A stretch of DNA of 32,000 bases, taken from positions 1,926,689-1,958,688 of the forward strand of contig NZ_JACHVQ010000001.1 in the NCBI RefSeq assembly GCF_014190805.1, in the 5' to 3' direction. Every line of letters begins with the position of its first letter. Position 1 is the stretch's first letter. This stretch comes from Flexivirga oryzae. GTDB lineage: Bacteria > Actinomycetota > Actinomycetes > Actinomycetales > Dermatophilaceae. This document shows positions 7,173 through 26,633 of this stretch, piece by piece. The notes under the pieces are model-generated. The model was not told the DNA's origin. It was given only the letters and a program-made list of their open reading frames with translations, and did no database searches. The position numbers and the translations under genes were made by a program.

Positions 7173-7216
7173 GATACGGATGGATACGTTTGCGCTAAAC
7201 CGTATCCATCCGTATC
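7173..7216 (-). terminator. Long perfect hairpin at the 3' end of the ligJ-like operon
   Basis: gatacggatggatacg (7173-7188) and cgtatccatccgtatc (7201-7216) form a perfect 16-bp inverted repeat, extendable by TTT/AAA with one bulge. One arm encodes the last 6 codons of the hydratase (LIRMDT). Confidence 0.6.
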
Positions 7217-8202
7217 AGCCGCGGGTAGACGCGCGTCGCGTTCTCGGAGAACACCTGCTGCCGGACGGCGTCGGTGACGGGTGCCGCGTCGACGTACCGC
7301 TTGGTGTCGTCGAAGTAGTGACCTGTGCTCGGGTCGATCCCGCGTACCGCACCGATCATCTCCGAGCCGAACAGGATGTTGGCCGGGTCGAGCACGGTGA
7401 ACATCAGGTCGATCCCGGGCTGGTGATAGACGCACGTGTCGAAGAAGACGTTGCGCATCAGGTGCTCCTCCAGTGCCGGCTTGCCGAGCATGTCGGCCAG
7501 CCCGCGGTAGCGACCCCAGTGGAACGGTACGGCGCCGCCGCCGTGCGGGATGATCAGCCGCAGCGACGGGAAGTCGGCGAACAGGTCGCCCTGCAGCAGT
7601 TGCATGAAGACCGTCGTGTCGGCGGCCAGGTAGTAGCCACCGGTGGCGTGGAAGGCCGGGTTGCAGCTGGCCGAGACGTGCACCATCGCGGGCACGTCCA
7701 GCTCACACAGCCGCTCGAACAACGGATACCAGTAGCGATCGGTGAGCGGTGGCGCGGTGAACCTCCCGCCGCTGGGATCGGGGTTGAGGTTGCAGCCGAT
7801 GAAACCCTGCGCGACGCACCGGTCCAACTCGGCGATGGCCGCGTCGAGCGGTTGGCCGGGGCTCTGCGGCAGCTGACACGCTGCCGCGAAACTGCCCGGG
7901 AACAACCCGGCGACCCGAGCGATCAGGTCGTTGCATGCCCTGGCCCAGGCGATGTTCGCCGGGAGGTCGCCCTGGTGGTGCGCCATCGCGGACGCGCGCG
8001 GGGAGAAGATGGTCAGATCCGCACCCCGTTCCTGTGCCAGCCGCAGCTGGTTGTCCTCGACGGAGGCACGGATCTGGTCGTCACTGATGACCGGGTATGG
8101 CGGTGCGCTCGCGCCGGCCTGCAGGGCGCTGAGTTGGTCCAGACGCCACTGAGTGTGCGCGGCGGGGACGGTGGTGTAGTGGCCGTGGCAGTCGATGATC
8201 AT
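7195..8202 (-). CDS. ligJ: 4-oxalomesaconate hydratase-like amidohydrolase_2 protein (LigJ-like)
   Basis: MIIDCHGHYT start, GFIGCNLNPDP, PPLTDRYWYPLFERLCELDVPAMVHV, IIPHGGGAVP, FDTCVY, LFGSE. These are collinear with the LigJ sequence as I recall it. ATG 8200-8202 overlaps the upstream stop (ATGA). Confidence 0.8.
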   Translation of the reverse strand: MIIDCHGHYTTVPAAHTQWRLDQLSALQAGASAPPYPVISDDQIRASVEDNQLRLAQERGADLTIFSPRASAMAHHQGDLPANIAWARACNDLIARVAGLFPGSFAAACQLPQSPGQPLDAAIAELDRCVAQGFIGCNLNPDPSGGRFTAPPLTDRYWYPLFERLCELDVPAMVHVSASCNPAFHATGGYYLAADTTVFMQLLQGDLFADFPSLRLIIPHGGGAVPFHWGRYRGLADMLGKPALEEHLMRNVFFDTCVYHQPGIDLMFTVLDPANILFGSEMIGAVRGIDPSTGHYFDDTKRYVDAAPVTDAVRQQVFSENATRVYPRLIRMDTV

Positions 8203-9095
8203 CAGGCGATCTCCCGGTCGGCGGGTGCGAGCTGGAACGCGTCGATCAGGGCGACCAGGTCCGGTTCGCCCGGCAGCAGGTTCCCGTGCGCGGCGGCCCA
8301 TCGCTGCCGGTGCACCGTGGCGCCCGCCATCCACGGCTCGACGCCCACGTCCCGGACCGTCGTCGCGGCCTCCTCCATCTCCTCGGCCCGCCGGACCCCG
8401 TGCTGGACCGAGCGGGCGACGAAGTAGGCGGCGATCTGCTCCCAGTCGGCGTCCGGGAGGATGTTGGACAACGAGGCCAGGACGTCACGTTCGACGCCGT
8501 ACTGCCGGGCCGCCAGCAACGACTCGGTGAACAACGCCTCCAACCCCTTGACGACCACCGAGCGGCACAGCTTGGTGGCCGCCGCCCGACCGACTCGGTC
8601 GGACACCACGCGCACCCGGGAGAAACCCCAGCGGTCCGCGTCGGCCGCAAACTCCGCCGCGTGCGGGCCGCCCAGCAGGAACGACGACGCGATCCGGTGC
8701 GGCTCGATCGGTGACATCAGTCCGGCCTCGACATACCGGCCGCCCGCCCGATCGATCGACTCCGCAGACTGCTGCTTGTGCCCCGGCGAGGACGAGTTGA
8801 CGTCGACGAACCAGGCCCCGGGCGCGATGCCGACGGACGCCGCCCGAGCCGCCTCGACCGAGCGGGCCGCCGTGACGGCACAGATCACCAGGTCCGCACC
8901 GGCCACGGCCGCCGGGGCCGAGGACGCCGGCGGCAGGCCGAGGTCGCGCGCGTTTCGGGACGCGGTGCTCATCTCGTCGGCGAACGCCACGTCCCACGCA
9001 GCGCAGTCGACGTCGCCGGTGCCGCGCAGGTCCTCGACCATCACCCGGCCGACCTCGCCCAGACCGATCACGGCGACCCGCTGCGCATGCCCCAC
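8202..9095 (-). CDS. NAD(P)-dependent oxidoreductase, 6PGDH-type NAD-binding domain plus DUF1932-like C-terminus
   Basis: Rossmann motif VAVIGLGEVGRVM at the N-terminus. C-terminal helical domain (KLCRSVVVKGLEALFTESLLAARQYGV...) resembles DUF1932-containing dehydrogenases. GTG 9093-9095 lies 5 nt after GAGGAG. The upstream 249 aa of ORF 8202..9842 is antisense to gntR and rejected. Confidence 0.8.
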   Translation of the reverse strand: MGHAQRVAVIGLGEVGRVMVEDLRGTGDVDCAAWDVAFADEMSTASRNARDLGLPPASSAPAAVAGADLVICAVTAARSVEAARAASVGIAPGAWFVDVNSSSPGHKQQSAESIDRAGGRYVEAGLMSPIEPHRIASSFLLGGPHAAEFAADADRWGFSRVRVVSDRVGRAAATKLCRSVVVKGLEALFTESLLAARQYGVERDVLASLSNILPDADWEQIAAYFVARSVQHGVRRAEEMEEAATTVRDVGVEPWMAGATVHRQRWAAAHGNLLPGEPDLVALIDAFQLAPADREIA

Positions 9096-9122: not shown

Positions 9123-9150
9123 ATTGTTGATAATACTAGCCGATAATTCT
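9123..9150 (+). promoter_or_regulatory. AT-rich operator-like motif in the divergent ligJ-operon/gntR promoter region (site 1)
   Basis: ATTGTTGATAATACTAGCCGATAATTCT. 22/28 positions match the reverse complement of 19279-19306. Imperfect dyad ATTGTT-N13-GATAAT. Overlaps -10-like hexamers on both strands (GATAAT, TATTAT). Confidence 0.45.
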
Positions 9151-9215: not shown

Positions 9216-9902
9216 ATGGCCGCTGCCACCAGGAAGCTTCGTTCCGGCCAGGAGGCCAAGCAGCTCGTGGTCCAGGGACTGCGGGACGCCATACTCGCCG
9301 GCGACATGGCCCCCGGCCAACGTCTGGTGGAGTCCGAGCTGATGGAGACGTTCGGGGCGACCCGCGGCAGCGTGCGCTCCGCGATCGACGACCTGGCCGC
9401 CGAAGGCCTGGTCGAGCGGATACCCAACCGCGGCGCGCGCGTCCGCCGGGTGTCCCTCGAGGAGGCGATCGCCATCCTGGAATGCCGCGCCGTCCTGGAG
9501 GGGCTGCTCGCCTCCCGCGCCGCGACCCGGGCCACCGACGCCCAGATCGCCCAGTTGGTGGAGCTGGGCGAGCGGATGACCGAGGCGGTGCGCGGCGGCG
9601 ATGTCGGCAGCTACTCGCGACTGAACTCCCAATTGCACGAGACCGTTTCCGAACTCGGCGAGCAACAGGTCGCCACCGGGCTGATCGGGCGGTTGCGCGC
9701 ACAGATCGTGCGCCACCAGTTCCGGCTGTCGATGCGACCAGGCCGCCCGCAGGTGTCCATCAAGGAGCACCTGGCGATCATCCGCGCCATCGAGAAGCGT
9801 GACCCGGAGGCCGCGGACCGCGCCGCCCGGGCCCATGTGCACAGCGTGATCGACGCCCTCGTGGAGATCGACCGCGAGGCGTCCTCCAACGTCTCCGCCT
9901 AG
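9216..9902 (+). CDS. GntR-family transcriptional regulator (FadR/FCD subfamily)
   Basis: N-terminal wHTH (GQRLVESELMETFGATRGSVRSAIDDLAAEGLVERIPNRGARV) and helical FCD-type C-terminal domain. ATG is preceded by GGAGAGGGG. Confidence 0.9.
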   Translation: MAAATRKLRSGQEAKQLVVQGLRDAILAGDMAPGQRLVESELMETFGATRGSVRSAIDDLAAEGLVERIPNRGARVRRVSLEEAIAILECRAVLEGLLASRAATRATDAQIAQLVELGERMTEAVRGGDVGSYSRLNSQLHETVSELGEQQVATGLIGRLRAQIVRHQFRLSMRPGRPQVSIKEHLAIIRAIEKRDPEAADRAARAHVHSVIDALVEIDREASSNVSA

Positions 9903-9903
9903 T

Positions 9904-13375: not shown

Positions 13376-13517
13376 TGGAGCGGGGTATGCACTGTTGGGC
13401 GATCAAGCTCGTCCCGATAGCCGATCGCCTTACGGATCACCGGCACGACCTTAAGCGCGACGGAGACACCGCCACTCATCGCTGCGATTCCCGGTTCTGG
13501 CGCTTCATGACTGAGAG

Positions 13518-14111: not shown

Positions 14112-14365
14112 CGTCTATCGCGCACTCGATCGGCAGCGCGTTGAGGCGCAGACCCAGATCGGTAATACCGCCTCATAGCCACGATCTCGCCCAGCGTCGG
14201 TGTCCCGCACGACACATCCTTGCGGGACGCGGACACTTGATAGGCGTCCCCACCCCGCGGCGACACACAATCGCCGGAGGTGTTCTGGGCACGGAACGTC
14301 TACCGGGACGAACGTCAGTGGTGGCACCTGGTGTCTGCCGTGTGGTCCGCGAAACAGTGAAGCTC

Positions 14366-14969
14366 CTACGTCGACTCGGAGTACGGGTGCGGTTGCGATT
14401 TCTTCAGCCGGGTCGTTGCTTCGGCCAGGCCGCTGTCGATGAGTTGGTCCTGCTGGGTGTCGAGGCCGAACAACACCTCGTGCCACGGGCTGAGCATGTG
14501 CCAGTCACGCGCACGAGCAAGCAGTTCGGGAGCAGGACGATAGGTTTCCAGCACGCCGCGGGCGAACATTGGACCGGCGGTGAGGGTGGTTGCGGACAGG
14601 TCGATCGCGGGATCGCCGATGCAGCTGTCGCCCCAGTCGATGATCCCGCTGACCTTCTCGCCGATCACGCGGATGTGGTCGAGTCCCAGGTCGGCGTGGA
14701 CCACGCAGGTGTACCAACGGTTCTTCGGCGACGACGACCGGGATCGGGACCGGCAGCGGGAGCTGCGGTGCCAGCCACGGGAGGAACTGCGTCTCGCGAC
14801 GCGCCTGTGGCTCGACTGCTGCGTTCCGGGGGCTCCGCTCCACCCAGCATCCGTCGACCAGCCTGGCCGTCATGTCCCAGCCGTCGTCGAAGTCGTCATC
14901 CACGTCCGGTAGCTCATCAGTGCGAGACACGGGGTCGCAACGCAGTTTCTCGCTCAGGCCGATCGCCAA
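14366..14969 (-). pseudogene. APH-family phosphotransferase remnant with internal deletion and frameshift
   Basis: N-lobe (DDGWDMTARLVDGCWVERSPRN...ETQFLPWLAPQLPLPVPIPVVVAEEP) is in the frame of ORF 14505..15029. The catalytic part (VVHADLGLDHIRV...GIIDWGDSCIGDPAIDL) is in the frame of ORF 14366..14704. The junction is near 14700-14715 and roughly 100 aa normally between these motifs is missing. 5' limit uncertain. Confidence 0.6.
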
Positions 14970-15005
14970 CCGCGACAGGACTCGGTCCTGCCGTAGCCTG
15001 CAAAC

Positions 15006-15611
15006 ATGGCGCGTATTCGGTGGACGCATTCATGTGTAACCGTCGACGACGGCTCGGGGGTCCTGGTGGTCGATCCGGGCATCTGGAGCGAGCCTGAGGC
15101 GCTGCTTCGTGCGGATGCTGTGCTGCTGACCCACGAACACAGCGATCACGCCGACCTGCTACGCATCGTCGGATCCGAACTTCCGGTGTGGGCGCCGTCC
15201 GGCGCGGACCTGCGCGGCATGCCCTTCCATCCCGTCGAACCGGGTGCCGAGGTCAGTGTCGCGGGGTTCACGGTGCGTGGCGTCGGCGGTCGGCACGCGC
15301 GGGTCCTACCCGAGCAGGACCCCTGCCCCAACCTCGGCTACGTCATCGACACCTCTGAGGGTGCCCTCTACCACCCCGGCGACGCGCTGGTCGTGCCCGA
15401 GGAAACGATCGAGACCCTGTTGGTGCCGCTCCAAGCGTCGTGGCTGAAGACGGCGGATGCTGTCGACTTCGCGCGCGCGATCGATCCCGAGCGTGCGTTC
15501 GGCATACACGACGGGCAGGTCAACCGGCGCGCGATCGCGAGTGTCGGGCGGTGGTTGGCCGAGTTCGGCTGCACGGCATACCGCTCGGTCGAGCCTGGAA
15601 GTCAGGTCTGA
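15006..15611 (+). CDS. MBL-fold metallo-hydrolase
   Basis: HxHxDH motif LLTHEHSDHAD, followed by conserved H/D positions (GGRHA, YHPGD). 201 aa. Confidence 0.8.
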   Translation: MARIRWTHSCVTVDDGSGVLVVDPGIWSEPEALLRADAVLLTHEHSDHADLLRIVGSELPVWAPSGADLRGMPFHPVEPGAEVSVAGFTVRGVGGRHARVLPEQDPCPNLGYVIDTSEGALYHPGDALVVPEETIETLLVPLQASWLKTADAVDFARAIDPERAFGIHDGQVNRRAIASVGRWLAEFGCTAYRSVEPGSQV

Positions 15612-15730
15612 GTCCCGGGTCGACGCGCCCGCCGCCATAGCCGATCCGCTTGTGGAACGTGTGCCGAGCAGGCATCGGTCGGCGGCGGGTCCGGACGCTG
15701 TTGAAAGTGCCACGATCTCGCCGGAGGCGG

Positions 15731-16213
15731 ATGGCTAAGCTCGTGTATGTGGTCCGCGCTCCGATCCAGGTCGTCGTGATTCCATTTCGCCGTCTCAGCG
15801 CGGGCTCGCACGAATTCGCGCTGTTCCAGCGGTCCGACAACAGCAAATGGCAACCCGTCGCCGGTGGCGCGGAGGATGACGAGTCGCCCGCTCAAGCTGC
15901 TCGACGTGAAGCTCATGAAGAGGCAGGAACGCCGATTGATGCGCCACTGCTGCCGTTGCAGACGATGGATACCGTTCCGGTCCATCTGTTCCGCGATCGG
16001 CAATACTGGCCCGCCGATCTGTACGTGGTGCCGCAGCACGTGTTCGCCATCGACGCGACCGAGCTGCGCCTGGCTATCTCGGCAGAGCACCTACGACTGG
16101 CATGGCGCCCCTACGCCGAGGCTCGCCGGCTGCTGGCCTACCAGAGCAACGAAACGGCACTCTGGGAACTCAACGAAAGACTGACCAACGACGACCTACC
16201 GTCGTCATGCTGA
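15731..16213 (+). CDS. NUDIX hydrolase
   Basis: Nudix box GGAEDDESPAQAARREAHEEAG (GX5EX7REUXEEXGU). ATG 15731 is preceded by GGAGG. Confidence 0.85.
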   Translation: MAKLVYVVRAPIQVVVIPFRRLSAGSHEFALFQRSDNSKWQPVAGGAEDDESPAQAARREAHEEAGTPIDAPLLPLQTMDTVPVHLFRDRQYWPADLYVVPQHVFAIDATELRLAISAEHLRLAWRPYAEARRLLAYQSNETALWELNERLTNDDLPSSC

Positions 16214-16341
16214 ACTGCGAGACATGTGTGCTGCACGACAGAGGATCGTGGTTCGGCAGGCTCCCGCGCGCCGTCGTCATACGGACTGGCCACACGGTTG
16301 ATCGGTTGTGTGGTTCGGTGTTCGGAGCTGATCAGGCGTGG

Positions 16342-16773
16342 TCAGTGGGTGGTCGTCGGTTCTGTGTCCCATGGATCGAGGCACGGCACGTCGAGCGGCT
16401 CGAAGTGCTTGATGTTCCGCGTCGCGACAGTCATCTCTGCGGATTGCGCGACGGCAGCGATGAGGGCGTCATTGAGTGGCGCATGTTCGGGAACTCGGTA
16501 CGCCGCGAGGATCCGCGCGGCTGCCAGGTCGAACGGCAAGACACGGTCGGCGAACGCGGGTAGCACATGGTCGTCGAACCAGCGGCGTACGACGATGCCC
16601 TGGTGGGTGTCGGATCGCTCCTTGGCGATGACTCCCCGCTCGATCTCGGCGACGGTGGTCGCCGAGACGTACTGGTCGGCCAGTGGCACGGACGCAGCCC
16701 AAGCCTCGACGGAACGGTTGCGCCCTCTGACGCGCAGAGCGGACACCACGTTGGCGTCCAGCAGATATCTCAC
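16342..16773 (-). CDS. vapC: PIN-domain toxin VapC (FitB-like; TA pair 2)
   Basis: [11 protein letters not shown]-terminus, VAEIERG, C-terminal [13 protein letters not shown] start overlaps the antitoxin stop (GTGA). Confidence 0.85.
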
Positions 16774-17000
16774 AGCTCCGCGGTGCGGGCGGCCGTGCCC
16801 AGTCGCTCGGGTTCGAACTCGATATCGGCACCCTCGTCCATGCTCAGGAGATCGATGATCGTCACGGGGTCACGCTCGAGCGCTTCGGTCAGTATGTCGC
16901 GAGCCTCTGCCTCGACCGACCGGTGGCGCTGCTCGGCGCGTGCGCGCAACGCGGCCTTGGTTCCCACGGGAAGGTTGCGAATCAAGATCTGCTCCACCAT
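16770..17000 (-). CDS. RHH-type antitoxin (FitA/plasmid-stability-like; TA pair 2)
   Basis: [44 protein letters not shown] 17000 is preceded by GAAGGTGG. The upstream 107 aa of ORF 16770..17321 is rejected. Confidence 0.8.
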
Positions 17001-17010
17001 AACCACCTTC

Positions 17011-17030
17011 GATATCGTGATGATGATATC
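17011..17030. promoter_or_regulatory. Paired GATATC palindromes upstream of antitoxin 2 (candidate operator/-10 region)
   Basis: gatatc-gtgatgat-gatatc, 11-30 nt upstream of the antitoxin ATG. Confidence 0.35.
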
Positions 17031-17136
17031 AGCTCGGGTGGATCTCTCAACCGAACCCATCGTGACATCAGCTGTGCCGAAGAACGATCCGATTGCGGCG
17101 CGTTGACCGTGGGGTCGTGTTGGTGGCGGGTGGCGC

Positions 17137-17547
17137 TCAGCTGATCCAGGGGTTGAGCAGGGCGACGCCGGTCGTTTCGAAGTCCGCGGTGTTGCGGGTC
17201 GCCAGTGTCGCCTGCCGTGATGCGCAGATCGCGGCGATCTGCGCATCGGCAGTGGCGATCGGTCGGCCCTCCCTTTCGCGGCCGGACACAACCCGACCGT
17301 ACCGGCGTGCTGCCCGCGCATCGAAAGGCAGAATCACGTCGTCGAAGTCGGCAAACACCAGCGCGGCGGTTGCCGCCAAGCGATCCCTGCGTGCGCCCTC
17401 GGGCAGCCGCGCTATGCCGTAGTCGATCTCGGCGAGGGTGACCGCCGTAGTGTGCAGTCGCCCAGCCTTTTGAATCCACGCCGCAACGTTGTCGTTCGGG
17501 TCCGGCCACATCATCTCCGAGACGATGCTGGTGTCGATGACGATCAC
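17137..17547 (-). CDS. vapC: PIN-domain toxin VapC (FitB-like; TA pair 3)
   Basis: IVIDTSIVSE N-terminus, LAEIDYG, C-terminal TLATRNTADF. GTG start lies 2 nt after the antitoxin stop. Confidence 0.85.
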   Translation of the reverse strand: MIVIDTSIVSEMMWPDPNDNVAAWIQKAGRLHTTAVTLAEIDYGIARLPEGARRDRLAATAALVFADFDDVILPFDARAARRYGRVVSGREREGRPIATADAQIAAICASRQATLATRNTADFETTGVALLNPWIS

Positions 17548-17549
17548 GA

Positions 17550-17798
17550 CTACTCCGGCAGGTCCGCCGCACGCGGCGTGTCCCGCCGGGCGGGGATGTC
17601 CAACTCGACTCCACCGAGCTTGGCGAAGCGCTCCCGGATCACCTGGCCCAGGTTGGGCTGGTCATCCTCGCTGTCGGCGAGGCTCTGTGTCAGGATCGCT
17701 CGCACCTCGGCCTCCATCGAACGTCCGTGGCGAGCGGCTTGAACCTTCAATCGGGCGGCCACCTCGTCGCTGAGGCCGCGCACGCTGATCGCTGCCAT
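17550..17798 (-). CDS. RHH-type antitoxin (FitA-like; TA pair 3)
   Basis: MAAISVRGLSDEVAARLKVQAARHGRSMEAEVRAILTQSL, paralogous to antitoxin 2. ATG 17798 is preceded by GAAGGTGG. Confidence 0.8.
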   Translation of the reverse strand: MAAISVRGLSDEVAARLKVQAARHGRSMEAEVRAILTQSLADSEDDQPNLGQVIRERFAKLGGVELDIPARRDTPRAADLPE

Positions 17799-17925
17799 GA
17801 GACCCACCTTCTGCTATCAATGCCAGCGGTCCGTGGTCGACGCGGTGCCGTAGAACAACTTGGCCAACACGGTCGCTCATCAGATCCCTGTGGCATGGAC
17901 TGATCAACTGTGCCACGATTTACCC

Positions 17926-18171
17926 ATGAATGCCACGGTGACGCTAGGACAGCAAGGGCGCTTGGTGATCCCCGCCGAGGTTCGCACCGCTTTGGGGCTG
18001 TCGCCTGGGGAGCAGTTGCATCTGCGGATCGTCGGCCACAGCCTGGTCCTCGAGCGCCCCCAAGACGCTGTCGCAGAGCTTCGAGGGCTGGCCACTCGGG
18101 TGCCGAGGACACGGTCACTTGTCGATGAGCTTCTCCAGGAACGCCGCCTCGCAGCTGCTGCCGGCGAATGA
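17926..18171 (+). CDS. AbrB/MazE/SpoVT-fold antitoxin (TA pair 4)
   Basis: [28 protein letters not shown] swapped-hairpin motif. Its stop overlaps the vapC start (ATGA). Confidence 0.8.
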
Positions 18172-18548
18172 CGGTTCTGGACGCGTCGGCGGTGTTGGCG
18201 CTCATCCATGACGAACCCGGTGCTCAGCTCGTGGCGCAGGCGCTACCGTCGGCGTCGTTGGGAGCGGCGAACTTTGCCGAGGTGATCGGCAAGCTGGTCG
18301 ATGCCGGGGTCGACGTCGGTGGTGTACGGGGACTGCTCGCCGCCGCGGGTGTGGTCATCGAACCGGTCACGGAAGCAGACGCGGAACTGGCGGGTGCGAT
18401 GCGGTCGCTCGACGGAGGAAAACTCCTGTCCCTGGGCGATCGCTGCTGCCTGGCACTGACTGCACGCAGTTCGCCTCCCGAGGTGCTGACCGCCCACCGT
18501 GCGTGGGCAGAGCTGGACCTGCCAGTGCGGGTGCGCCTGATCCGGTAG
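18168..18548 (+). CDS. vapC: PIN-domain toxin VapC (TA pair 4)
   Basis: [14 protein letters not shown]-terminus, [21 protein letters not shown]. 126 aa. Confidence 0.8.
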
Positions 18549-18578
18549 CCGATCGCCGTACGGGAGTCGCGGAGGCAT

Positions 18579-18962
18579 TCAGCGGCCGGGCGCGTTGTGA
18601 TAGTCGAGTTCGAGTTGCACCGCTGTTGCGTGGAGCCGCTTGTCGCGCGTCCACAAGCGAGCATCATTGGACAGCCTCGTCGAGGCCAGCAGGTGCGCGT
18701 CGACGTATCCGACACCGCGGCCGAACAGGCGCTCATGGTCGATGAGAGTCAGCACCTCGACGTCGGTGGCAACCGTGGCTTGCGGAAGGTTGTTGAGCAG
18801 CCGCACGACCTCGTTGCGGCCCGAGTGTGAGAGGTTGCCCAAGGCGAGCTCCCCCGTCACCCAGGGGTGACCCAGCACGTTCCCATCCTCAAGGAGGGCG
18901 ACGAGCTGGGCATCGCCACTGCGGAGATGGTCGATCCAGATCGACGTGTCGACGAGGATCAC
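18579..18962 (-). CDS. vapC: PIN-domain toxin VapC (TA pair 5)
   Basis: ILVDTSIWIDHLR N-terminus, VTGELALG, GVGYVDAHLLAS, LWTRDKRL. GTG start overlaps the antitoxin stop (GTGA). Confidence 0.85.
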   Translation of the reverse strand: MILVDTSIWIDHLRSGDAQLVALLEDGNVLGHPWVTGELALGNLSHSGRNEVVRLLNNLPQATVATDVEVLTLIDHERLFGRGVGYVDAHLLASTRLSNDARLWTRDKRLHATAVQLELDYHNAPGR

Positions 18963-19156
18963 GCGGTGGATGACCGCCGCCGCGGGACGGGCTTCGCGCC
19001 GGGCTCGCTCGCGGCGAGCTGGGCGAGCCGCCGAGCACTCTCCCGCTCGATCAGGGCACGTAGAGCCTGACGAACCAGAGCCGTCTTCTCAGTCGTCCCC
19101 GTCAAGCGCTGCGCCTCCTTGAGGAGCTCGTCGTCCAAGGCGAGTGTTGTTCTCAT
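18959..19156 (-). CDS. vapB: VapB-family antitoxin (TA pair 5)
   Basis: MRTTLALDDELLKEAQRLTGTTEKTALVRQALRALIE is typical of short VapB antitoxins. ATG lies 5 nt after GGAGG. Confidence 0.8.
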   Translation of the reverse strand: MRTTLALDDELLKEAQRLTGTTEKTALVRQALRALIERESARRLAQLAASEPGAKPVPRRRSSTA

Positions 19157-19169
19157 GGCCGCCTCCAGG

Positions 19170-19205
19170 CACGTATCAGAACATCGAATGATGTCATGTT
19201 ACGTG
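19170..19205. promoter_or_regulatory. Imperfect inverted repeat upstream of vapB (pair 5), candidate autoregulatory operator
   Basis: CACGTA-tcag-AACAT ... ATGTT-ACGTG (19170-19184 / 19196-19205), 14-49 nt upstream of the vapB ATG. Confidence 0.4.
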
Positions 19206-19278
19206 CAATTGGCGTCGGGTCAGGGATCGCCGATCGGCAACGTGGTCGAGCCAGTTCCGGATGGCGATCTCGCCTCCA

Positions 19279-19306
19279 AGAATTGTCGTCTTATATTATT
19301 GACAAT
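19279..19306 (-). promoter_or_regulatory. AT-rich operator-like dyad upstream of the ligK-like operon (site 2)
   Basis: Minus-strand reading ATTGTCAATAATATAAGACGACAATTCT. Perfect dyad AATTGTC-N13-GACAATT (19281-19287 / 19301-19307). 22/28 identical to site 1 at 9123-9150. The right arm overlaps the TTGACA -35 box. Confidence 0.45.
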
Positions 19307-19334: not shown

Positions 19335-20027
19335 ATGAGCCGCACAATCGTCGTCACCGACCAGCCCCGTAGCGACCCGGAGGCCGCGGCCCGACTCGGA
19401 GCGTTCGGGACCGCCACCGTGCACGAGGCGATCGGCCGCTCCGGTTACCTCGGACCGACGCTGCGTCCGGCCTGGCCGGGTGCGCGGATCGGCGGGAACG
19501 TGGTCACCGCGCTGTGCTGGCCCGGAGACAACCTGATGATCCATGTGGCCGTGGAGCAGTGCCGTAAGGGCGACGTCCTCGTCGTCGCCACCAACTCCCC
19601 CAGCACCGACGGACTGTTCGGCGAGCTTTTCGCGACCGCCCTGCGGCACCGCGGCGTCCGCGGCGTCGTGCTCGGCTGCGGCGTGCGCGATGTCGCCGAA
19701 CTGCAGGCCATGGGCTTCCCGGTCTGGTCGGCCGCGGTCAGTGCACAGGGCACCGTCAAGGAGACTGCCGGCAGCGTGAACCTGCCGGTCGTGCTGGGCG
19801 GCCAGCTCATCCGCCCCGGTGACGTCGTGGTCGCCGACGACGACGGCGTGGTCTGCGTGCCACACGACCGGGTGGACAACGCCCTGGCCGCGTCGCAGGC
19901 CCGCGAGGACAAGGAGGCCGCTTCCCGAGCCGCCTTCCAGGACGGGCAGCTCGGACTGGACCGCTACGGACTGCGCGACCGGCTCGGCGAATTCGGCATC
20001 GAGTACGTCCGCTACCAGGACCTGTGA
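19335..20027 (+). CDS. ligK: 4-carboxy-4-hydroxy-2-oxoadipate / HMG aldolase-oxaloacetate decarboxylase (RraA fold, LigK/GalC-like)
   Basis: RraA-like core (GTATVHEA, GDNLMIHVA, KGDVLVV, GELFATALRHRGVRGVVLGCGVRD, FPVWS, PGDVVVADDDGVVCVP) plus the ~65-aa C-terminal extension typical of LigK-type aldolases. 230 aa. Confidence 0.8.
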   Translation: MSRTIVVTDQPRSDPEAAARLGAFGTATVHEAIGRSGYLGPTLRPAWPGARIGGNVVTALCWPGDNLMIHVAVEQCRKGDVLVVATNSPSTDGLFGELFATALRHRGVRGVVLGCGVRDVAELQAMGFPVWSAAVSAQGTVKETAGSVNLPVVLGGQLIRPGDVVVADDDGVVCVPHDRVDNALAASQAREDKEAASRAAFQDGQLGLDRYGLRDRLGEFGIEYVRYQDL

Positions 20028-21157
20028 TGCCCTCGGCCGAGGTCGACGGCGTGCGCTGCATGTGGATGCGGGGCGGCACCTCCAAGGGTGCCTTCTTCCT
20101 GGCCGAGGACCTGCCCGCCGACCCCACCGAGCGCGACCGGTTGCTGCTACGCATCATGGGCACGCCCGATCCGCAACAGATCGATGGCATCGGCGGAGCC
20201 ACCTCGGTCACCAGCAAGGTCGCCGTCGTCAGCGCCTCGACCGATCCGGACGCCGACGTCGACTACCTCTTCCTGCAGGTCGGTGTCGACCGGCCGACCG
20301 TCTCCGACCGGCAGAACTGCGGCAACATCCTGGCCGGCGTCGGACCGTTCGCGGTGGAACGCGGCCTGCTCGCCACAGCAGGCGACCGGACCACGGTGCG
20401 TATCCGGATGGTCAACTCCGACAGCATCGCGGTCGCGACCTTCCCCACCCCGAATGGACGACCGCAGTATGCCGGCGACGCCCGGATCTCCGGCGTGCCG
20501 GGATCGGCCGCGCCGATCAGCATCGCGTTCCGCGGCACCGAGGGCTCGGTCACCGGCGCGCTCTTCCCGACCGGCCGGGTCGTCGACGAGATCGACGGCG
20601 TCGCGGTCACGTGCATCGACAACGGGATGCCGGTCGTGGTGCTGACCGCCGCCGCGCTGGGGCGGACCGGCACGGAGACCCACGAGCAGTTGCAGGCGGA
20701 CACCGCCCTGCTGGAGCGGGTGGACCGGATCCGCTGCGCCGCAGGAGAGCTGATGGGTCTCGGCGACGTTGCCGCCTCGTCGGTCCCCAAGACGATGGCT
20801 GTCTCCCCCGCCGTCGACGGCGGTCACCTGCGCATCCAGTCCTTCATCCCCGTCACGCCGCATCAGGCGATCGGCGTCCTGGCCGCGATCAGTGCGGTGA
20901 CCGCCTGCCGCCACCCGGACAGCACCACGCACGACGTGGCGCGGTCCTGGCCGGTCGACAGCAGCACGATCGACGTCGAACACCCCAGTGGGCACATGCT
21001 TCTCGACGTCACGGCGGGCATGCAGGAGGGCATCTTCACCGTGCAGCGGTCCGCCGTGATCCGCACCGCGCGCAAGCTCTTCGACGGCACCGTCTTCCCG
21101 ACCTCCACCCAATCCCTACCCGTACCCGAGGAGACCACCCATGCCGCTGCGCCATGA
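20024..21157 (+). CDS. PrpF-family isomerase (4-oxalomesaconate tautomerase GalD / LigU-like)
   Basis: MWMRGGTSKGAFF, IMGTPDPQQIDGIGGATSVTSKVAVV, DVDYLFLQV, NCGNILAGVGPFA. Start is GTG 20024 or ATG 20027 (TGATG junction with ligK). Confidence 0.8.
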   Translation: MMPSAEVDGVRCMWMRGGTSKGAFFLAEDLPADPTERDRLLLRIMGTPDPQQIDGIGGATSVTSKVAVVSASTDPDADVDYLFLQVGVDRPTVSDRQNCGNILAGVGPFAVERGLLATAGDRTTVRIRMVNSDSIAVATFPTPNGRPQYAGDARISGVPGSAAPISIAFRGTEGSVTGALFPTGRVVDEIDGVAVTCIDNGMPVVVLTAAALGRTGTETHEQLQADTALLERVDRIRCAAGELMGLGDVAASSVPKTMAVSPAVDGGHLRIQSFIPVTPHQAIGVLAAISAVTACRHPDSTTHDVARSWPVDSSTIDVEHPSGHMLLDVTAGMQEGIFTVQRSAVIRTARKLFDGTVFPTSTQSLPVPEETTHAAAP

Positions 21158-22094
21158 AGTCGCGCACCTGTCCCATCTGCACCTGAACACACCCGTCCTC
21201 GACGAGAGCGTGGCGTTCTTCGTCGACTACCTCGGCCTGACCCCCAACGGTGAGGAGCCGGACGGCAGCGTCCACCTGCACGCGTTCGACGACTACGAAC
21301 ACCACACCATCACCCTGTCGGGACACCAGACCTCCGGGATCCGGCGCACCTACCTGCGGGCCAGCAGCCCGGAGGCACTGCAGCGGCGAGTCACGGCGCT
21401 CGAGGCAGCCGGCCAGGGCATCGGCTGGGCGGACGGACCCACCGGGTACGGGCCCACCTACCTCTTCCACGACCCCGACGGCCACGAGCTCGGGATCTAC
21501 TGGGAGACCGAGAGATTCACGCCGTCCGCGGACCAGGCGCCCGCTCTGAAGAACCAGGCAGCGGCGTACCCCGGCCGCGGGGTCTGCGTGCGCCGCCTGG
21601 ACCACATCAACTACCTCGGCGTCGACGTCGAGGCCAACCGCGACTTCTTCCGCGACCAGCTCGGTGCCCTGGTGACCGAGCAGATCGTCCTCGACACCGG
21701 CGATGTCGCGGGAAGCTGGACGACCTTCACCAACAAGGGGTATGACGCGGTCTACACCCGCGACAACACCGGCACGAGCGGCCGCCTGCACCACATCGCG
21801 TTCGCCGTCGACAGTCGTGCGGACATCCTGCGTGCCGCCGACATCGCGCTCGAACAAGGCGTGTTCATCGAGACCGGCCCGCACAAGCACGCGATCCAGC
21901 AGACCTTCTTCCTCTACGTGTACGAGCCCGGCGGCAACCGGATCGAGCTGTGCAACGCCGGCGCGCGGCTCGTCCTCGACCCCGACTGGCAGCCGATCAA
22001 CTGGACCGAGGCCGAGCGGGCCAAGGGCCAGGCATGGGGCCTGAAGACCATCGCCAGCTTCCACTCGCACGGCACGCCGCCGGTCGAGTCGTAG
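21141..22094 (+). CDS. Type I (vicinal oxygen chelate) two-domain extradiol ring-cleavage dioxygenase, catechol 2,3-dioxygenase-like
   Basis: 317 aa. XylE-like metal ligand contexts LDHINYLG, RLHHIAFAV, FFLYVYEPGGNRIEL, and tail WGLKTIASFHSHGTPP. ATG lies 7 nt after GAGGAG and overlaps the upstream gene by 17 nt. Confidence 0.85.
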   Translation: MPLRHEVAHLSHLHLNTPVLDESVAFFVDYLGLTPNGEEPDGSVHLHAFDDYEHHTITLSGHQTSGIRRTYLRASSPEALQRRVTALEAAGQGIGWADGPTGYGPTYLFHDPDGHELGIYWETERFTPSADQAPALKNQAAAYPGRGVCVRRLDHINYLGVDVEANRDFFRDQLGALVTEQIVLDTGDVAGSWTTFTNKGYDAVYTRDNTGTSGRLHHIAFAVDSRADILRAADIALEQGVFIETGPHKHAIQQTFFLYVYEPGGNRIELCNAGARLVLDPDWQPINWTEAERAKGQAWGLKTIASFHSHGTPPVES

Positions 22095-22176: not shown

Positions 22177-23859
22177 TCAGCTCTGCGCGACGTCCACCGG
22201 CTCGGGGTCGGTCGACACGAAGCGCTCCTCGTGCTCGCGGCCACCGATCAGGACGGCGGCCAGCACCGCGGCGAGCAGCGCGGCAATGCCACAGATCAGG
22301 TAGCCGAGTGCGTATCCGTTCGAAAGGGCATGGAACGCAACGTCTTTCAGTGGGTTGAGCGGTGCGGGCACGCCGTTGGCTCCGAGTGGACCCGAGTTGA
22401 CGGCGCCGACCGCGCCTTCGAGCTCTGCCTTCTTCGCACCCGTCGCGTGCGACGGCGCAGCGTTGAACGCCTTGAGGGCGTCCTGCAGCTGCGGCGAGGC
22501 GGCCACCTTGGCGGCGATCTCGTAGGCCGACTTGGTCAGCGCGACCGCACCGACGATCGCCGGGCCGAGACTCAGGCCGAAATCTCGCAGCATCGACGTC
22601 ATCGCGCTCGCCATACCGGCCCTGGACGTCGGGACACTGTTCACCGACACCGCGGTGATCGAGGTGACGGCGGTCTTGAAACCGGCGCCGACTGCGAGCA
22701 ACGGCACCGCGATCGCCCACAACGAGTCGTGCGTCGACGGGATCAGGCACAACGCGACGTCACCGACGCCGATCAGGGCGGCACCGAGCGCGAGCACCCA
22801 GCCCGGGTTGTACCGCTGCAGCAGGAACGGGCTGACCGGAAACAGCACGGCACCCATGATGTTCAGCAGGATGAACGCGACGGCCGTGAACAGCGGCGAA
22901 TGGCCCTGGATCGCCGACACCCGGATGCTGGTCGCGTACGCCGTGCCGAGGTAGGCGAACATCGCCAGGAGCGTGACGATCGAGGTGACCACGAACGCGC
23001 GGTTCGAGAAGAGCTCGAGTTGCACCAACGGCTTCTCGGTCCGGCGCTCGACGAACACGAAGGCGACCAGGAAGATCACCGCTGCGATGAAGCAGCCGAT
23101 GACGGTTCCCGAGGTCCAGTCTCCTTCGGCACCCTGGATCACGCCGTACACCAACGCGAACACGCCGATCGCCACCAGGATCTGACCGGGTATGTCGAGC
23201 GCGCGGCCCTCCTTCGCGCTCGAGTTCGTCGCACCGACAACGGTGATCACGGTGCTGATCAGCGCGAAGCAGGCCAGCCCGGCGAACGCCCAGCGCCAGC
23301 TGGCGTCCGCGCCGCCCGAGTGGTGGATGCGAGCCAGCAGGCCACCCATCACCGGGGAGCCGAAACCACCGACCGTCAACGCGACGGCCCACGCGGAGAA
23401 GACCTCCGACCGCGCCTTCACCGTGTGCGTGCCGGCGGCCAGCATGGCGATCGAGGTCGGGAACATCGCGGCCGCACCGACACCGGCCAAACCGTAACCA
23501 CCGAAGAGGTAGACGAACTTCATGCCGTGCGATCCACCGGTCGGCGTGAGGAACGCGATCACGGTGCCGATCACCATCAGCGACGAGCCCACGGTCAGCA
23601 ACCGTTTGCGGCCGAACATGTCGCCGAGCACGCCGAAGGTCAGCTCCAGCAAGGTCACCGGCAACAAGAAGGCGTCGGACACCCAGGTCAGCTGCGTCGA
23701 GGAGGGGTTCAGGTCCAGCTGGATGATGCCTTGCAGCACCGCGGGCATCGACAGCCCGAGCTGGGCGACCAACGCCGCGAACACGCACGCGACGAAGGTC
23801 CCCTTCGTCAGTTTTCGCCCGGCAGCCGACTCGGCGGGCACTTCCGTCATCGAACTCAT
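22177..23859 (-). CDS. MFS transporter, DHA2 (14-TMS, EmrB/QacA-like) family
   Basis: 560 aa, highly hydrophobic with many predicted TM segments. MFS motif A region GVLGDMFGRKRLLTVG. The length and large C-terminal half fit DHA2. Start is ATG 23859 or 23850. Confidence 0.9.
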   Translation of the reverse strand: MSSMTEVPAESAAGRKLTKGTFVACVFAALVAQLGLSMPAVLQGIIQLDLNPSSTQLTWVSDAFLLPVTLLELTFGVLGDMFGRKRLLTVGSSLMVIGTVIAFLTPTGGSHGMKFVYLFGGYGLAGVGAAAMFPTSIAMLAAGTHTVKARSEVFSAWAVALTVGGFGSPVMGGLLARIHHSGGADASWRWAFAGLACFALISTVITVVGATNSSAKEGRALDIPGQILVAIGVFALVYGVIQGAEGDWTSGTVIGCFIAAVIFLVAFVFVERRTEKPLVQLELFSNRAFVVTSIVTLLAMFAYLGTAYATSIRVSAIQGHSPLFTAVAFILLNIMGAVLFPVSPFLLQRYNPGWVLALGAALIGVGDVALCLIPSTHDSLWAIAVPLLAVGAGFKTAVTSITAVSVNSVPTSRAGMASAMTSMLRDFGLSLGPAIVGAVALTKSAYEIAAKVAASPQLQDALKAFNAAPSHATGAKKAELEGAVGAVNSGPLGANGVPAPLNPLKDVAFHALSNGYALGYLICGIAALLAAVLAAVLIGGREHEERFVSTDPEPVDVAQS

Positions 23860-23961: not shown

Positions 23962-24873
23962 TCAGCGACACGGGCCGATCGGCTCGGCGACCAAGGTCTC
24001 GCTCGGCAGATCCACACGCAGCACCATGTCCCCGGGGTGCAGCCGGGCGTCGCGTCGGTAGAGCTCGAGCAGCCGTTCCTCTGCAGCCAGGTCGCCCGTG
24101 TCCGCGGCTTCGAGCAATTGCGCCACCTCGTCGATGAGGGTCGCGTCCTGACCCTCATCGCCCGGCGCGGTCATCGTCCCCCATCGGTCCCAGAGCAGCA
24201 GTTCGTCACCGAAGCGGTGCGCCACCTCCAGCAGCACGTAGTTGCGGACCATCCACGCACCGCGAGCCACCGGCACCGACGCGTCGACGCCGAACGTCTC
24301 GGCGTCGAGGGTGCCTGCGCGATGGCCGCGCCATACCTCGGCCGCGGTGTGGAATCCGTTGCCGGCCGGGATGTTCCGCGGGTTCGGCAGCGCCGCGCTC
24401 GGTTCGTCCACCTCCGGGTCGAAGCGGACCCACCGGTCCCCCAGCCACACCTCGGGGATGACGTGGTCGTGGTGCCAGTCGGGCGCGAAGTAGTCGACGA
24501 ACCCGACCCGGGACCTCGCGGGTATGCCGTGCTGGCGCAGTGTCGCGACGCTCAGCAGTGTGTGGTCACGGCAGCATCCCTGCACCTTCGTGGCGGGCTC
24601 CCGCCTTTCAGTGAGCGGCGCCGGGTGGCGTTGCTGGTCGATCCCGAGCGTGCGCTCGATCCAGCGGGAGTGGATGTCCGAGACGGTCTTCGCGGGCAAG
24701 TCGTGATCGGATGCCCGGTAGTGCACGATGACGTTCCGGACGACGGCCGACATCTCGTCGAGGTCGGTGGGGACTGCGTCCAGCAGGGCTGCGAAGCGCC
24801 CCGGGTCGCTGTATGCCGTGTGGGCGGCGTGGTCGATCACCGAAAATGGCATGGCGGTACTCATGATTGGCAT
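23962..24873 (-). CDS. Transglutaminase-like cysteine peptidase-fold protein
   Basis: Cys-His-Asp core in the expected order: GCCRDHTLLSVATLRQHGIPARSRVGF, HHDHVIPEVWLGDRWVRFDPE. ATG 24873 gives 303 aa (alternative 24864). The upstream 200 aa of ORF 23962..25476 overlaps merR and is rejected. Confidence 0.8.
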   Translation of the reverse strand: MPIMSTAMPFSVIDHAAHTAYSDPGRFAALLDAVPTDLDEMSAVVRNVIVHYRASDHDLPAKTVSDIHSRWIERTLGIDQQRHPAPLTERREPATKVQGCCRDHTLLSVATLRQHGIPARSRVGFVDYFAPDWHHDHVIPEVWLGDRWVRFDPEVDEPSAALPNPRNIPAGNGFHTAAEVWRGHRAGTLDAETFGVDASVPVARGAWMVRNYVLLEVAHRFGDELLLWDRWGTMTAPGDEGQDATLIDEVAQLLEAADTGDLAAEERLLELYRRDARLHPGDMVLRVDLPSETLVAEPIGPCR

Positions 24874-24905
24874 CCGTTCTGTTATCGGGCTTCTCGGGTA
24901 TTGGG

Positions 24906-25733
24906 TCAGTGTTCTTGAGCCGGCGCCAGCGGCTGCACGATGTCGGCGACGTGTTCGACGCCCGCGCTGCCGTCCCAGTCGGAGATGTAGCGCTCCCGGA
25001 CCGGGCCGGCCGACGGAAGATCGAGAGATGCACGCACGACCGCCGAATACGCCTGCAGGATCTGGGGATAGCCGCACAGGTCGGAGCCGATCTCGACATA
25101 CAGCTCCTCGCCTGCCGGCTCCACCCGCACGCTGATGTCGCTCGTCGGCGGCACCAGTCCGTCGAAGGGCACGCAGACCTCGATCGGGCCGTCGCTGTCC
25201 GGGCTGACGGTGCCGTGGTAGATCACCCAGGACTCCGCCGTCCGCGTCGCGTCGTGCGCTGCGAGGTGCTCGGAGATCGCCCGATCCGCCTCGGTGAAGC
25301 AGTCGACCAGCTCCGGTTGCAGCGCCCGTCGGGTGATCGAAGCAACCGTCCGCTCCGCCATGGTGCGTTGCCGCACGACAAGGTCCGCCGCGGCGACCTG
25401 CCGCGCGGTGAGCTCGGCGAGCAGGAAGTCGACGATGCCCTCCTGTTCCCGGTGCAGTCGCGCGTGGCCCTGCCACCAGGCGGTCAACCGGTCTGCCGCC
25501 TGGTGCTCGTCATCGGCGTCGACCACCTGCGCGACGAGGGCGAGCGGTGCGCCCGCCCGCCGCAGCATGGTGATCCGCTCGGCACGACCCAGTTGTTCTG
25601 GCCCGTAGTAGCGGTAGCCGTTGTGTTCATCGATCCGCTGTGGCAGCAGCAGGCCGGAATCGGCATACAACCGCAGTGCTTTGGGACTCAGCCCGGTGCT
25701 GCGGCCGAACTCGCCGGCGGTCATCTCCTTCAT
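24906..25733 (-). CDS. MerR-family transcriptional regulator with GyrI-like/effector-binding C-terminal domain
   Basis: N-terminal MerR wHTH (MTAGEFGRSTGLSPKALRLYADSGLLLPQRIDEHNGYRYYGPEQLGRAERITMLRRAG). The ~170-aa C-terminal domain is of BmrR/GyrI-like type. Confidence 0.9.
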   Translation of the reverse strand: MKEMTAGEFGRSTGLSPKALRLYADSGLLLPQRIDEHNGYRYYGPEQLGRAERITMLRRAGAPLALVAQVVDADDEHQAADRLTAWWQGHARLHREQEGIVDFLLAELTARQVAAADLVVRQRTMAERTVASITRRALQPELVDCFTEADRAISEHLAAHDATRTAESWVIYHGTVSPDSDGPIEVCVPFDGLVPPTSDISVRVEPAGEELYVEIGSDLCGYPQILQAYSAVVRASLDLPSAGPVRERYISDWDGSAGVEHVADIVQPLAPAQEH

Positions 25734-25838: not shown

Positions 25839-26633
25839 GTGTCCCTACCCACCACGGCCGACCTGCCCGATACGTTGACCGTCACCGAGTCCGGTGATGT
25901 CGCCGTCCTGACGCTGAACCGCCCGGAGAAGCGCAACGCCCTCAACGACGAGACGGTGCTCGGCATCGAGCACTTCTTCACCAACCTGCCCCGTGGCGTA
26001 CGGGCGGTCGTGCTGGCCGCCCAGGGCGACCACTTCTGCGCCGGTCTGGACCTGAGCGAGCTGTCCGAAGGCGACGCCGTCACCGGGCTGCAGCACTCAC
26101 GCATGTGGCACCGCGCCTTCGAGGCCATCGAATTCGGTCCCGTTCCGGTGGTCGCCGCGCTCAAGGGCGCCGTCGTCGGTGGCGGACTGGAGCTCGCGGC
26201 CGCGACGCACGTCCGCGTCGCGGAGTCGACGACCTTCTACGCACTGCCCGAGGGCATGCGGGGCCTGTTCGTCGGAGGCGGGGCCTCGGTCCGTGTTCCC
26301 CGGCTGATGGGGGTCGCCCGAATGACGGACCTGATGCTCACCGGACGTCGTTACGACGCTGCCGAGGGACTGGCGGCCGGCCTGTCGCAGTACGTGGTCG
26401 AGGAGGGAGCCGGGGTCGACCGGGCCATCGAGATCGCCCGACAGATCGCCGGCAACGCAACGCAGAGCAACTACGCGATCATCCAGGCGCTGCCCAGGAT
26501 CGCCGAGGCGAATCCGCGCGAGGGCTACTTCATGGAGGCGATGATGGCCGCGATCGCCCAGGGCAGCGACGACGCGAAGGATCGGATGCGCGCCTTCCTC
26601 GAGGGCCGCGCACCGAAGGTGACCGATCGATGA
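25839..26633 (+). CDS. Enoyl-CoA hydratase/isomerase (crotonase) family protein
   Basis: LNRPEKRNAL, FCAGLDL, oxyanion-hole region AALKGAVVGGGLELAAATH. GTG 25839 lies 6 nt after AGGAG. Confidence 0.9.
   Translation: MSLPTTADLPDTLTVTESGDVAVLTLNRPEKRNALNDETVLGIEHFFTNLPRGVRAVVLAAQGDHFCAGLDLSELSEGDAVTGLQHSRMWHRAFEAIEFGPVPVVAALKGAVVGGGLELAAATHVRVAESTTFYALPEGMRGLFVGGGASVRVPRLMGVARMTDLMLTGRRYDAAEGLAAGLSQYVVEEGAGVDRAIEIARQIAGNATQSNYAIIQALPRIAEANPREGYFMEAMMAAIAQGSDDAKDRMRAFLEGRAPKVTDR

Follow-up and report, generated by a model that had tools for sequence, protein, structure and literature searches.

The 32,000-nt stretch of Flexivirga oryzae DNA analysed here (contig NZ_JACHVQ010000001.1, positions 1,926,689 to 1,958,688; the window) carries genes for the conversion of 4-oxalomesaconate (OMA) in two operons, one of which also encodes a two-domain type I (VOC) extradiol dioxygenase. 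Genes in this high-GC DNA were picked by third-position GC bias and then annotated with Pfam and NCBIfam; those of interest are listed in Table 1 together with two operator boxes. A first-pass annotation had described a coupled operon of an RraA-fold aldolase, a PrpF-family isomerase and a two-domain VOC protein, and this is borne out by profile scores and gene overlaps. The TGA of ligK and the GTG of galD overlap by 4 nt (GTGA), and the ATG of the dioxygenase gene lies 17 nt inside galD with GGAGA ahead of it. The LigJ-like hydratase assigned to the second operon was likewise confirmed by its similarity to solved LigJ structures (6dwv/6dxq and 2gwg; E 3e-164 for 6dwv). Its ATG shares 1 nt with the stop codon of a DUF1932 dehydrogenase gene (TGATG), which amounts to translational coupling. 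This dehydrogenase gene has a GTG start at 9095, preceded by GAGGAG, and equals in length its ortholog in L087, the contig of a metagenome-assembled genome that is the closest relative of the locus.

Table 1. Genes and operator boxes of the putative regulon in the window
Feature	Position	Strand	Size	Basis and remarks
ligJ, 4-oxalomesaconate (KCH) hydratase, amidohydrolase_2 family	7195..8202	-	335 aa	Pfam Amidohydro_2; WP_183320035.1 (exact)
NAD_binding_2 + DUF1932 dehydrogenase	8202..9095	-	297 aa	Pfam PF03446 + PF09130
Operator box 1, ATTGTTGATAAT	9123..9134	.		Divergent gntR/DUF1932 intergenic region; <=1 mismatch to ATTGTTGACAAT
GntR/FCD (FadR-type) regulator	9216..9902	+		Pfam GntR + FCD
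Operator box 2, ATTATTGACAAT	19295..19306	.		29 nt upstream of ligK start
ligK/galC, aldolase for CHA (4-carboxy-4-hydroxy-2-oxoadipate) and oxaloacetate decarboxylase, RraA fold	19335..20027	+	230 aa	WP_183320055.1 (exact)
galD/ligU, OMA tautomerase, PrpF family	20024..21157	+	377 aa	NF033377, Pfam PrpF
Two-domain type I (VOC) extradiol dioxygenase, Tyr201 clade	21141..22094	+		PF00903 twice; WP_183320056.1 (exact), annotated 'VOC family protein'
Major facilitator superfamily (MFS) transporter, DHA2-like	22177..23859	-	560 aa	Pfam MFS_1; 86% identical to the MFS protein of L087

The lower-pathway enzymes were identified by profile scores. LigK/GalC is a CHA aldolase by NF006731 (313.6 bits, cutoff 179) and Pfam RraA-like, and falls slightly under the cutoff of the narrower model TIGR02798 ligK_PcmE (289.8 against 304.5). 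GalD/LigU is an OMA tautomerase by NF033377 (489.3 bits, cutoff 440) and Pfam PrpF (E 2e-103). The OMA hydratase of the window is of the LigJ type. The dioxygenase, with PF00903 in two stretches and homology to solved members, belongs to the two-domain type I (VOC) enzymes and not to the LigB superfamily (type II), to which, as far as we know, the ring-opening enzymes of all textbook gallate routes belong.

Searches of the window by tblastn, even at E<10, detected no LigA, LigB (LigAB query from Roseomonas), LigI, GalB or tannase, and no Gfo/Idh/MocA domain of the LigC type occurs among the annotated genes. The set for protocatechuate 4,5-cleavage (LigAB, LigC and LigI) is thus missing from the window, as the first-pass annotation had stated. 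That annotation had not listed the DUF1932 dehydrogenase, the GntR/FCD regulator, the MFS transporter and the shared operator boxes.

The two operons are about 10 kb apart on opposite strands, and both of their promoters carry the palindrome ATTGTTGACAAT with the core ATTGT-N2-ACAAT. With up to one mismatch, this palindrome has exactly two matches in the window (at 9123 and 19295; 0.01 expected), the second of which sits within a bigger AT-rich palindrome at 19283-19305. As both promoters carry the box, the cluster, though split, probably still forms a single regulon. In L087, where the order is Tannase-MFS-LigJ-DUF1932 <-> GntR-LigK-GalD-VOC and the dioxygenase is 90% identical, gntR lies 81 nt upstream of ligK, and box 2 is identical and in the same place. 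DNA alignment shows that positions 9903-19292 of the window (~9.4 kb) are extra between gntR and ligK; since L087 holds all genes contiguously, we regard this stretch as an insertion. The MFS gene, which in L087 lies between tannase and ligJ (3638-5320), is found in the window just downstream of the dioxygenase gene, and the tannase that is next to it in L087 is not in the window.

We surveyed 80 actinomycete loci over ±10 kb around the dioxygenase gene, using family-specific tblastn counts. The palindrome was found 142 times in 71 of the loci, where block shuffles predict ~2 occurrences, and 86 exact palindromes compare with 0.03 expected. The boxes lie 30-180 nt upstream of ligK, galB, ligJ, the DUF1932 gene, the MFS gene, a DesA-like gene or gntR, and the DUF1932 gene often has a box of its own. 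A GntR/FCD homolog is encoded within 10 kb in 66/80 loci. A regulator with a GntR helix-turn-helix and an FCD domain and a conserved palindrome at the promoters of its presumed targets together point to a GntR/FCD regulon.

The survey bears out the expected co-occurrence of the VOC gene with the OMA genes in Actinomycetota: ligK is near the dioxygenase gene in 69-70 and galD in 72-73 of the 80 loci, nearly always directly upstream and on the same strand. A hydratase of either type was found in 63/80 loci, the GalB type (a PIG-L protein; match to Pseudomonas putida GalB, 5cgz, E 1e-81) in 40 and the LigJ type in 23, and not a single locus had both. This alternation of GalB and LigJ in one slot is a non-orthologous displacement. 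Two unrelated OMA hydratases that replace each other and never occur together argue strongly that OMA is the shared intermediate. Only 3/80 loci had a LigB-like gene. LigI (4d8l, E 5e-77) was present in 9/80, each time together with DUF1932 and LigJ, and tannase in 5/80. The DUF1932 dehydrogenase was found in 42/80 loci, 33 of which had no LigI nearby. None of the 40 GalB loci had LigI within 10 kb, and 23 of them had no DUF1932 gene either; in these 23, the enzymes are therefore just those of P. putida galB/C/D together with a VOC dioxygenase.

Genes that may supply or import substrates are also found at these loci, with a DesA/LigM-like O-demethylase in 10/80 and an aromatic-acid MFS symporter in 18/80. 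Some Amycolatopsis and Nocardia loci (L008, L009, L011 at about 6100-10950, and L017) consist of the dioxygenase gene and gntR without ligK/galD. In these, a DesA/LigM-like tetrahydrofolate-dependent O-demethylase and a PurU-like formyl-tetrahydrofolate deformylase adjoin the dioxygenase gene, with an operator box in between. This layout suggests funnelling of syringate or 3-O-methylgallate under the same regulator.

The best solved relative of the dioxygenase is 9wgj (~57% identity, E 1e-100) and its nearest characterised homolog is AphC (3lm4/7q2a; 34% identity, E 1e-55); LapB, homoprotocatechuate 2,3-dioxygenase (HPCD) and XylE are matched at E about 1e-24 to 1e-25 only, with 3e-25 for LapB and HPCD. 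The best NCBIfam model is TIGR03211 (catechol 2,3-dioxygenase), but the score of 289.4 is under the equivalog cutoff of 320.2, as is that for TIGR02295 (HpaD; 170.6 against 321.4). The 317-aa protein is thus placed outside the catechol 2,3-dioxygenase equivalog, in a distinct clade with at least 572 genome matches and thousands of metagenomic proteins. In databases, nearly all of these carry the name 'catechol 2,3-dioxygenase' or 'VOC family protein', and the name 'pheB' also occurs. The structure 9wgj, of the Geobacillus zalihae protein P0156, was deposited as 'catechol 1,2-dioxygenase', a label that several clade members also bear in UniRef. This name is probably wrong, because the fold is of the VOC extradiol type and the gene lies among GalB and LigK genes. 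A literature search found no publication on 9wgj or a Geobacillus zalihae dioxygenase.

Active-site residues were mapped by HMMER alignments to AphC and HPCD and by an alignment of 277 sequences. The XylE-pattern metal ligands seen at first pass are there: the triad H155/H218/E269 aligns with H155/H217/E268 of AphC and H155/H214/E267 of HPCD and is invariant in 275/275 clade proteins. H250 and Y259, which correspond to the catechol-deprotonating pair His249/Tyr258 of AphC, are conserved as well. The active site does not follow the XylE pattern throughout, as the second-sphere acid/base residue His200 of HPCD, AphC and LapB is replaced by Tyr201 in an ungapped, anchored alignment. Tyr201 occurs in 274/275 clade proteins, on the Actinomycetota and the Bacillota branches alike, and makes up the clade signature together with K295, Q297 and H308.

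The substrate pocket of AphC is hydrophobic, being lined by W192, M205, I251, L296, L303 and F309 (Navas et al. 2022, PMC9062432). Its alkyl-pocket residues M205/L296/F309 correspond to T (or S) 206, Q297 and H308 in the clade, whose pocket is polar or basic where AphC holds the alkyl group. The Lys or Arg at position 295 aligns with the Arg292/293 region of HPCD, which we take to be a contact to the substrate carboxylate. If a catechol were bound to AphC in a flipped orientation, its C3 substituent would face His200 and Thr252 (Navas et al. 2022, PMC9062432). These positions are occupied by Tyr201 and Gln253 in the window enzyme. We infer that the third hydroxyl of gallate may face Tyr201/Gln253 and its carboxylate the patch of Lys295/Gln297/His308.

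The association of the VOC gene with OMA genes extends beyond Actinomycetota. An Agrobacterium pAt plasmid has the order PIG-L - VOC - ligK - OMA tautomerase - tannase. In Thermus oshimai the order is VOC-GntR-DUF6282-PIG-L-LigK-oxidoreductase, with PobA adjoining. In Geobacillus (9wgj; L084 10001-10972) the VOC gene is divergent from GntR-DUF6282-GalB-LigK-DUF1932-MFS-esterase, and GalB matches 5cgz at E 2e-46. In Roseomonas the VOC gene adjoins LigAB, LigI, DUF1932 and LigK. None of these contexts, nor L087, contains genes of the catechol meta-pathway (2-hydroxymuconate semialdehyde (HMS) dehydrogenase or hydrolase, 4-oxalocrotonate tautomerase (4-OT), 2-oxopent-4-enoate hydratase (OEH) or 4-hydroxy-2-oxoacid (HOA) aldolase). 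The DUF6282 protein of the Thermus and Geobacillus operons (~300 aa, no solved homolog; L083 10588-11508 and L084 7640-8545) occurs there without a PrpF tautomerase; candidate functions are those of an alternative tautomerase or of a lactonase for 2-pyrone-4,6-dicarboxylate (PDC).

We consider it likely that the window holds a gallate-type regulon under GntR control, with the Tyr201 VOC dioxygenase standing in for GalA/DesB as the source of OMA for GalD, LigJ and LigK. That the VOC enzyme may be a non-orthologous ring-opening step into the OMA pathway had been proposed in the first-pass annotation, and the proposal gains strong support from the synteny, the alternation of hydratases, the operator, the linkage to tannase, the rarity of LigB-like genes and the pocket residues. 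A gallate-type trihydroxy- or dihydroxybenzoate would enter by the 560-aa MFS protein, the probable substrate transporter of the system. The dioxygenase would bind the substrate at an Fe(II) or Mn(II) ion coordinated by H155/H218/E269 and cut the ring beside the bound diol. With gallate, both carbons of the cleaved bond would be hydroxylated, so that OMA would form directly and no aldehyde would arise. GalD/LigU would then tautomerise OMA, LigJ would hydrate the tautomer to CHA, and LigK/GalC would cleave CHA to pyruvate and oxaloacetate. The predicted binding sites of the GntR/FCD protein are the ATTGTTGACAAT boxes of the two promoters, from which a pathway metabolite presumably releases it. 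Judged from comparative genomics, gallate is the most likely substrate, and its main rival is protocatechuate, processed with the help of the DUF1932 dehydrogenase.

The proposed scheme has close counterparts in two known systems. In the gal cluster of P. putida KT2440 (galA, galB, galC, galD, galT, galP and galR; Nogales et al. 2005, 2011, cited in PMC9942251), gallate is converted to OMA and further by tautomerase, hydratase and CHA aldolase to pyruvate and oxaloacetate, the sequence that we propose here. The two systems share GalD and GalC orthologs and a dedicated MFS transporter, and the GalB-type hydratase is present in half of the related loci. They differ in the ring-cleavage enzyme, which is the LigB-superfamily GalA in P. 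putida and a two-domain VOC protein here, in the hydratase of the window (LigJ, not GalB), in the extra DUF1932 dehydrogenase and in regulation, which is by the LysR-type GalR in P. putida whereas a GntR/FCD regulator and the ATTGTTGACAAT operator are found here. With Sphingobium sp. SYK-6 the window shares orthologs of LigU, LigJ and LigK (the LigJ structure matched above is that of SYK-6) and a layout in which a gallate-specific dioxygenase, DesB in SYK-6, feeds OMA into a shared lower pathway. Unlike SYK-6, the window lacks LigAB/DesB, LigC (Gfo/Idh/MocA) and LigI, and its dioxygenase has an unrelated fold.

The first-pass annotation had also regarded the combination of enzymes as unrecognised, and this is only partly right, as a type I gallate enzyme has been reported. 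Gallate removal by Rhodococcus opacus PD630, a strain without LigAB/DesB, requires AHK27425.1, a type I 'catechol 2,3-dioxygenase', and this enzyme also suffices for it (Cai et al. 2021, PMC8442903). In that study 2,3-cleavage was assumed without identification of the product, the OMA genes were not linked to the enzyme, and 4-methylcatechol was cleaved as well. A 'gallic acid catabolic cluster' of PD630 has been drawn with a colour code referring to GalA-D (Kutraite & Malys 2023, PMC9942251). The metal ligands of AHK27425.1 (H158/H221/E272; PMC8442903) have spacings of 63 and 51 residues, as in the window enzyme, compared with 62 and 51 in AphC; this spacing is the sole sign that AHK27425.1 belongs to the clade. 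With a Nocardia clade member as seed, no Rhodococcus protein was among the top 120 matches. The prior art on enzyme activity is thus partial. We found no paper describing the clade, the Tyr201 signature, the operator or the link to OMA genes, and to all appearance the linkage to the pathway is undescribed, as are the module shared across phyla, the operator and the His-to-Tyr signature.

AphC of Rhodococcus jostii RHA1 (PDB 7q2a/3lm4; PMC9062432) resembles the window enzyme in fold, metal triad and the His249/Tyr258 equivalents. It differs in having His200 and a hydrophobic pocket where the window clade has Tyr201, T206, Q297, H308 and K295, and it is encoded in an alkylphenol meta-cleavage cluster, not among OMA genes. 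The Geobacillus zalihae protein 9wgj is of the same clade, with Tyr201, Q297 and H308 all present; the neighbourhood of its gene differs from that in the window in having DUF6282 in place of the PrpF tautomerase.

Several observations weigh against gallate as the substrate and OMA as the direct product. The DUF1932 dehydrogenase has no role in the gallate scheme, because the conversion of gallate to OMA needs no redox step, and yet its gene lies within the regulon in the window, in 42/80 loci and in all four contexts outside the phylum. Two of these contexts include genes for protocatechuate-forming enzymes, PobA in Thermus and VanAB in Roseomonas, and in Roseomonas LigAB is encoded beside the VOC gene. 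On 4-substituted catechols, type I enzymes such as AphC and HPCD usually cleave proximally (2,3-type), and the formation of OMA would need flipped binding, unlike this usual mode. The cleavage of 4-methylcatechol by AHK27425.1 is AphC-like, as are the Rhodococcus plasmid homologs (34-36% identity). The tannase gene is not present in the window itself, and no enzymology was found in the literature for any member of the clade.

Part of this evidence favours an alternative in which the VOC protein acts mainly on protocatechuate, as a type I 4,5-dioxygenase. Its product would be CHMS (4-carboxy-2-hydroxymuconate semialdehyde), from which the DUF1932 dehydrogenase, as an analog of LigC, would produce PDC, and a LigI encoded elsewhere would then give OMA; alternatively, the dioxygenase could be bifunctional for protocatechuate and gallate like LigAB. 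The DUF1932 gene has operator boxes of its own within the regulon, is coupled to ligJ and is conserved in the Geobacillus, Thermus, Roseomonas and Agrobacterium contexts. Genuine LigI, where present, always accompanies DUF1932 and LigJ, the PobA and VanAB genes adjoin the Thermus and Roseomonas clusters, and the DUF6282 proteins of Bacillota and Thermus may be lactonases that have gone unrecognised. Against this stand the lack of LigI within reach at 33/42 DUF1932 loci and in the window, and the 23 GalB loci with neither dehydrogenase nor lactonase. The linkage to tannase indicates gallate, the LigAB beside the Roseomonas VOC gene suggests that the VOC protein does a different job from LigAB, and the relatives of the DUF1932 dehydrogenase are beta-hydroxyacid-dehydrogenase-like and uncharacterised, as are the only solved ones (3qsg and 4ezb). 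We therefore judge protocatechuate as the chief substrate to be unlikely. A Pseudarthrobacter protocatechuate 4,5-cleavage paper was considered as a source for a CHMS dehydrogenase of the DUF1932 type, but the enzyme used there is of the classical PcaB/LigC type. In the window, a second Amidohydro_2 protein (31064-31951) was considered as the missing LigI and rejected; it matches 3irs (BB4693) only and differs from the genuine LigI of other loci.

A proximal 2,3-cleavage of gallate, as proposed by Cai et al. for PD630 (PMC8442903), would agree with the way in which type I enzymes usually attack 4-substituted catechols and would give the dehydrogenase a task, the oxidation of a carboxy-dihydroxymuconate semialdehyde. 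The OMA genes would then have to serve another upstream enzyme. This product would be unusable by OMA tautomerase, hydratase and CHA aldolase, yet the genes for these are conserved along with the dioxygenase gene over four phyla and share its operons and regulation, and most loci, with LigB-like genes in 3/80, have no other ring-cleavage enzyme. We hold this reading to be highly improbable. That the protein is an ordinary catechol or alkylcatechol 2,3-dioxygenase and a chance neighbour of the lower-pathway genes, as its database names, its best NCBIfam model and AphC as nearest characterised homolog might suggest, is hardly credible in view of the scores below the TIGR03211 and HpaD cutoffs, the 34% identity to AphC, the missing meta-pathway genes in the contexts examined, the polar or basic residues in place of the alkyl pocket and the Tyr in place of His200; moreover, the ligK/galD synteny in ~70/80 loci and the shared operator mean that the neighbourhood is not a coincidence.

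Beyond the gallate-type regulon of the window, a wider proposal can be put forward tentatively. The Tyr201 clade may be a mechanistically distinct, cross-phylum type I family in which the change of His200 to Tyr accompanies flipped binding of gallate and its cleavage to OMA. It may be the main ring opener for gallate and tannin in Actinomycetota, Bacillota and Thermus, mis-annotated in hundreds of genomes, with DUF1932 proteins as a new family of CHMS dehydrogenases that admit protocatechuate to the pathway.

The insertion between gntR and ligK (9903-19292) has a weaker codon bias and a lower GC content than its surroundings. Its cargo comprises a methyltransferase-like gene, an APH-family kinase, a metallo-beta-lactamase-fold protein, a NUDIX hydrolase, two PIN-domain (VapC-like) genes and several open reading frames without a family match. 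We found neither a tRNA gene nor domains of an integrase or transposase at this insertion, and its flanks hold no convincing repeats; the best repeat around it (20 nt, 95%, at 9801 and 19374) has both copies inside coding regions. Directly upstream of the relocated MFS gene and on the same strand lie genes for a MerR-family regulator and then a transglutaminase-core protein (23962-25733, minus strand), and the MFS gene may now be transcribed from this unrelated unit.

Further downstream on the plus strand, an apparent operon (25839-31951) encodes an enoyl-CoA hydratase, an acyl-CoA synthetase-like protein, a 3-hydroxyacyl-CoA dehydrogenase, an AMP-binding ligase and the Amidohydro_2 protein mentioned above (295 aa). 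In L029, the dioxygenase cluster has homologs of the last two genes nearby, and L046 has one of them. The other flank (1-6576) is a conserved actinobacterial housekeeping block unrelated to the regulon, with genes for a LysR regulator, pdxS (SOR_SNZ), a GT4 glycosyltransferase (pimA-like), a lipid A-type acyltransferase, a CDP-alcohol phosphatidyltransferase (annotated as PIP synthase), a HIT protein and an F420H2-dependent quinone reductase.

Our findings suggest that F. oryzae has a standard gallate lower pathway in which the ring appears to be opened by an unrelated clade of mis-annotated 'catechol 2,3-dioxygenases'. Gallate and gallotannins bring large amounts of plant carbon into soil, and gallate is also, along with syringate and 3-O-methylgallate, a central intermediate of lignin valorisation. 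If the proposed function is correct, hundreds of genomes with the labels 'catechol 2,3-dioxygenase' or 'VOC family protein' would need re-annotation, metabolic reconstructions of Actinomycetota, Bacillota and Thermus would gain a gallate pathway, and the gallate route of R. opacus PD630 would be explained. In the clade, a model non-heme iron enzyme would be available with His200 naturally changed to Tyr and with one structure solved (9wgj), which would bear on the long-studied part that His200 plays in O2 activation and on the determinants of extradiol regiochemistry. The dioxygenase, the GntR regulator and the operator would be parts for lignin-to-product engineering and biosensors, and the conserved DUF1932 dehydrogenase offers a tangible starting point for finding a missing or alternative step of the pathway.

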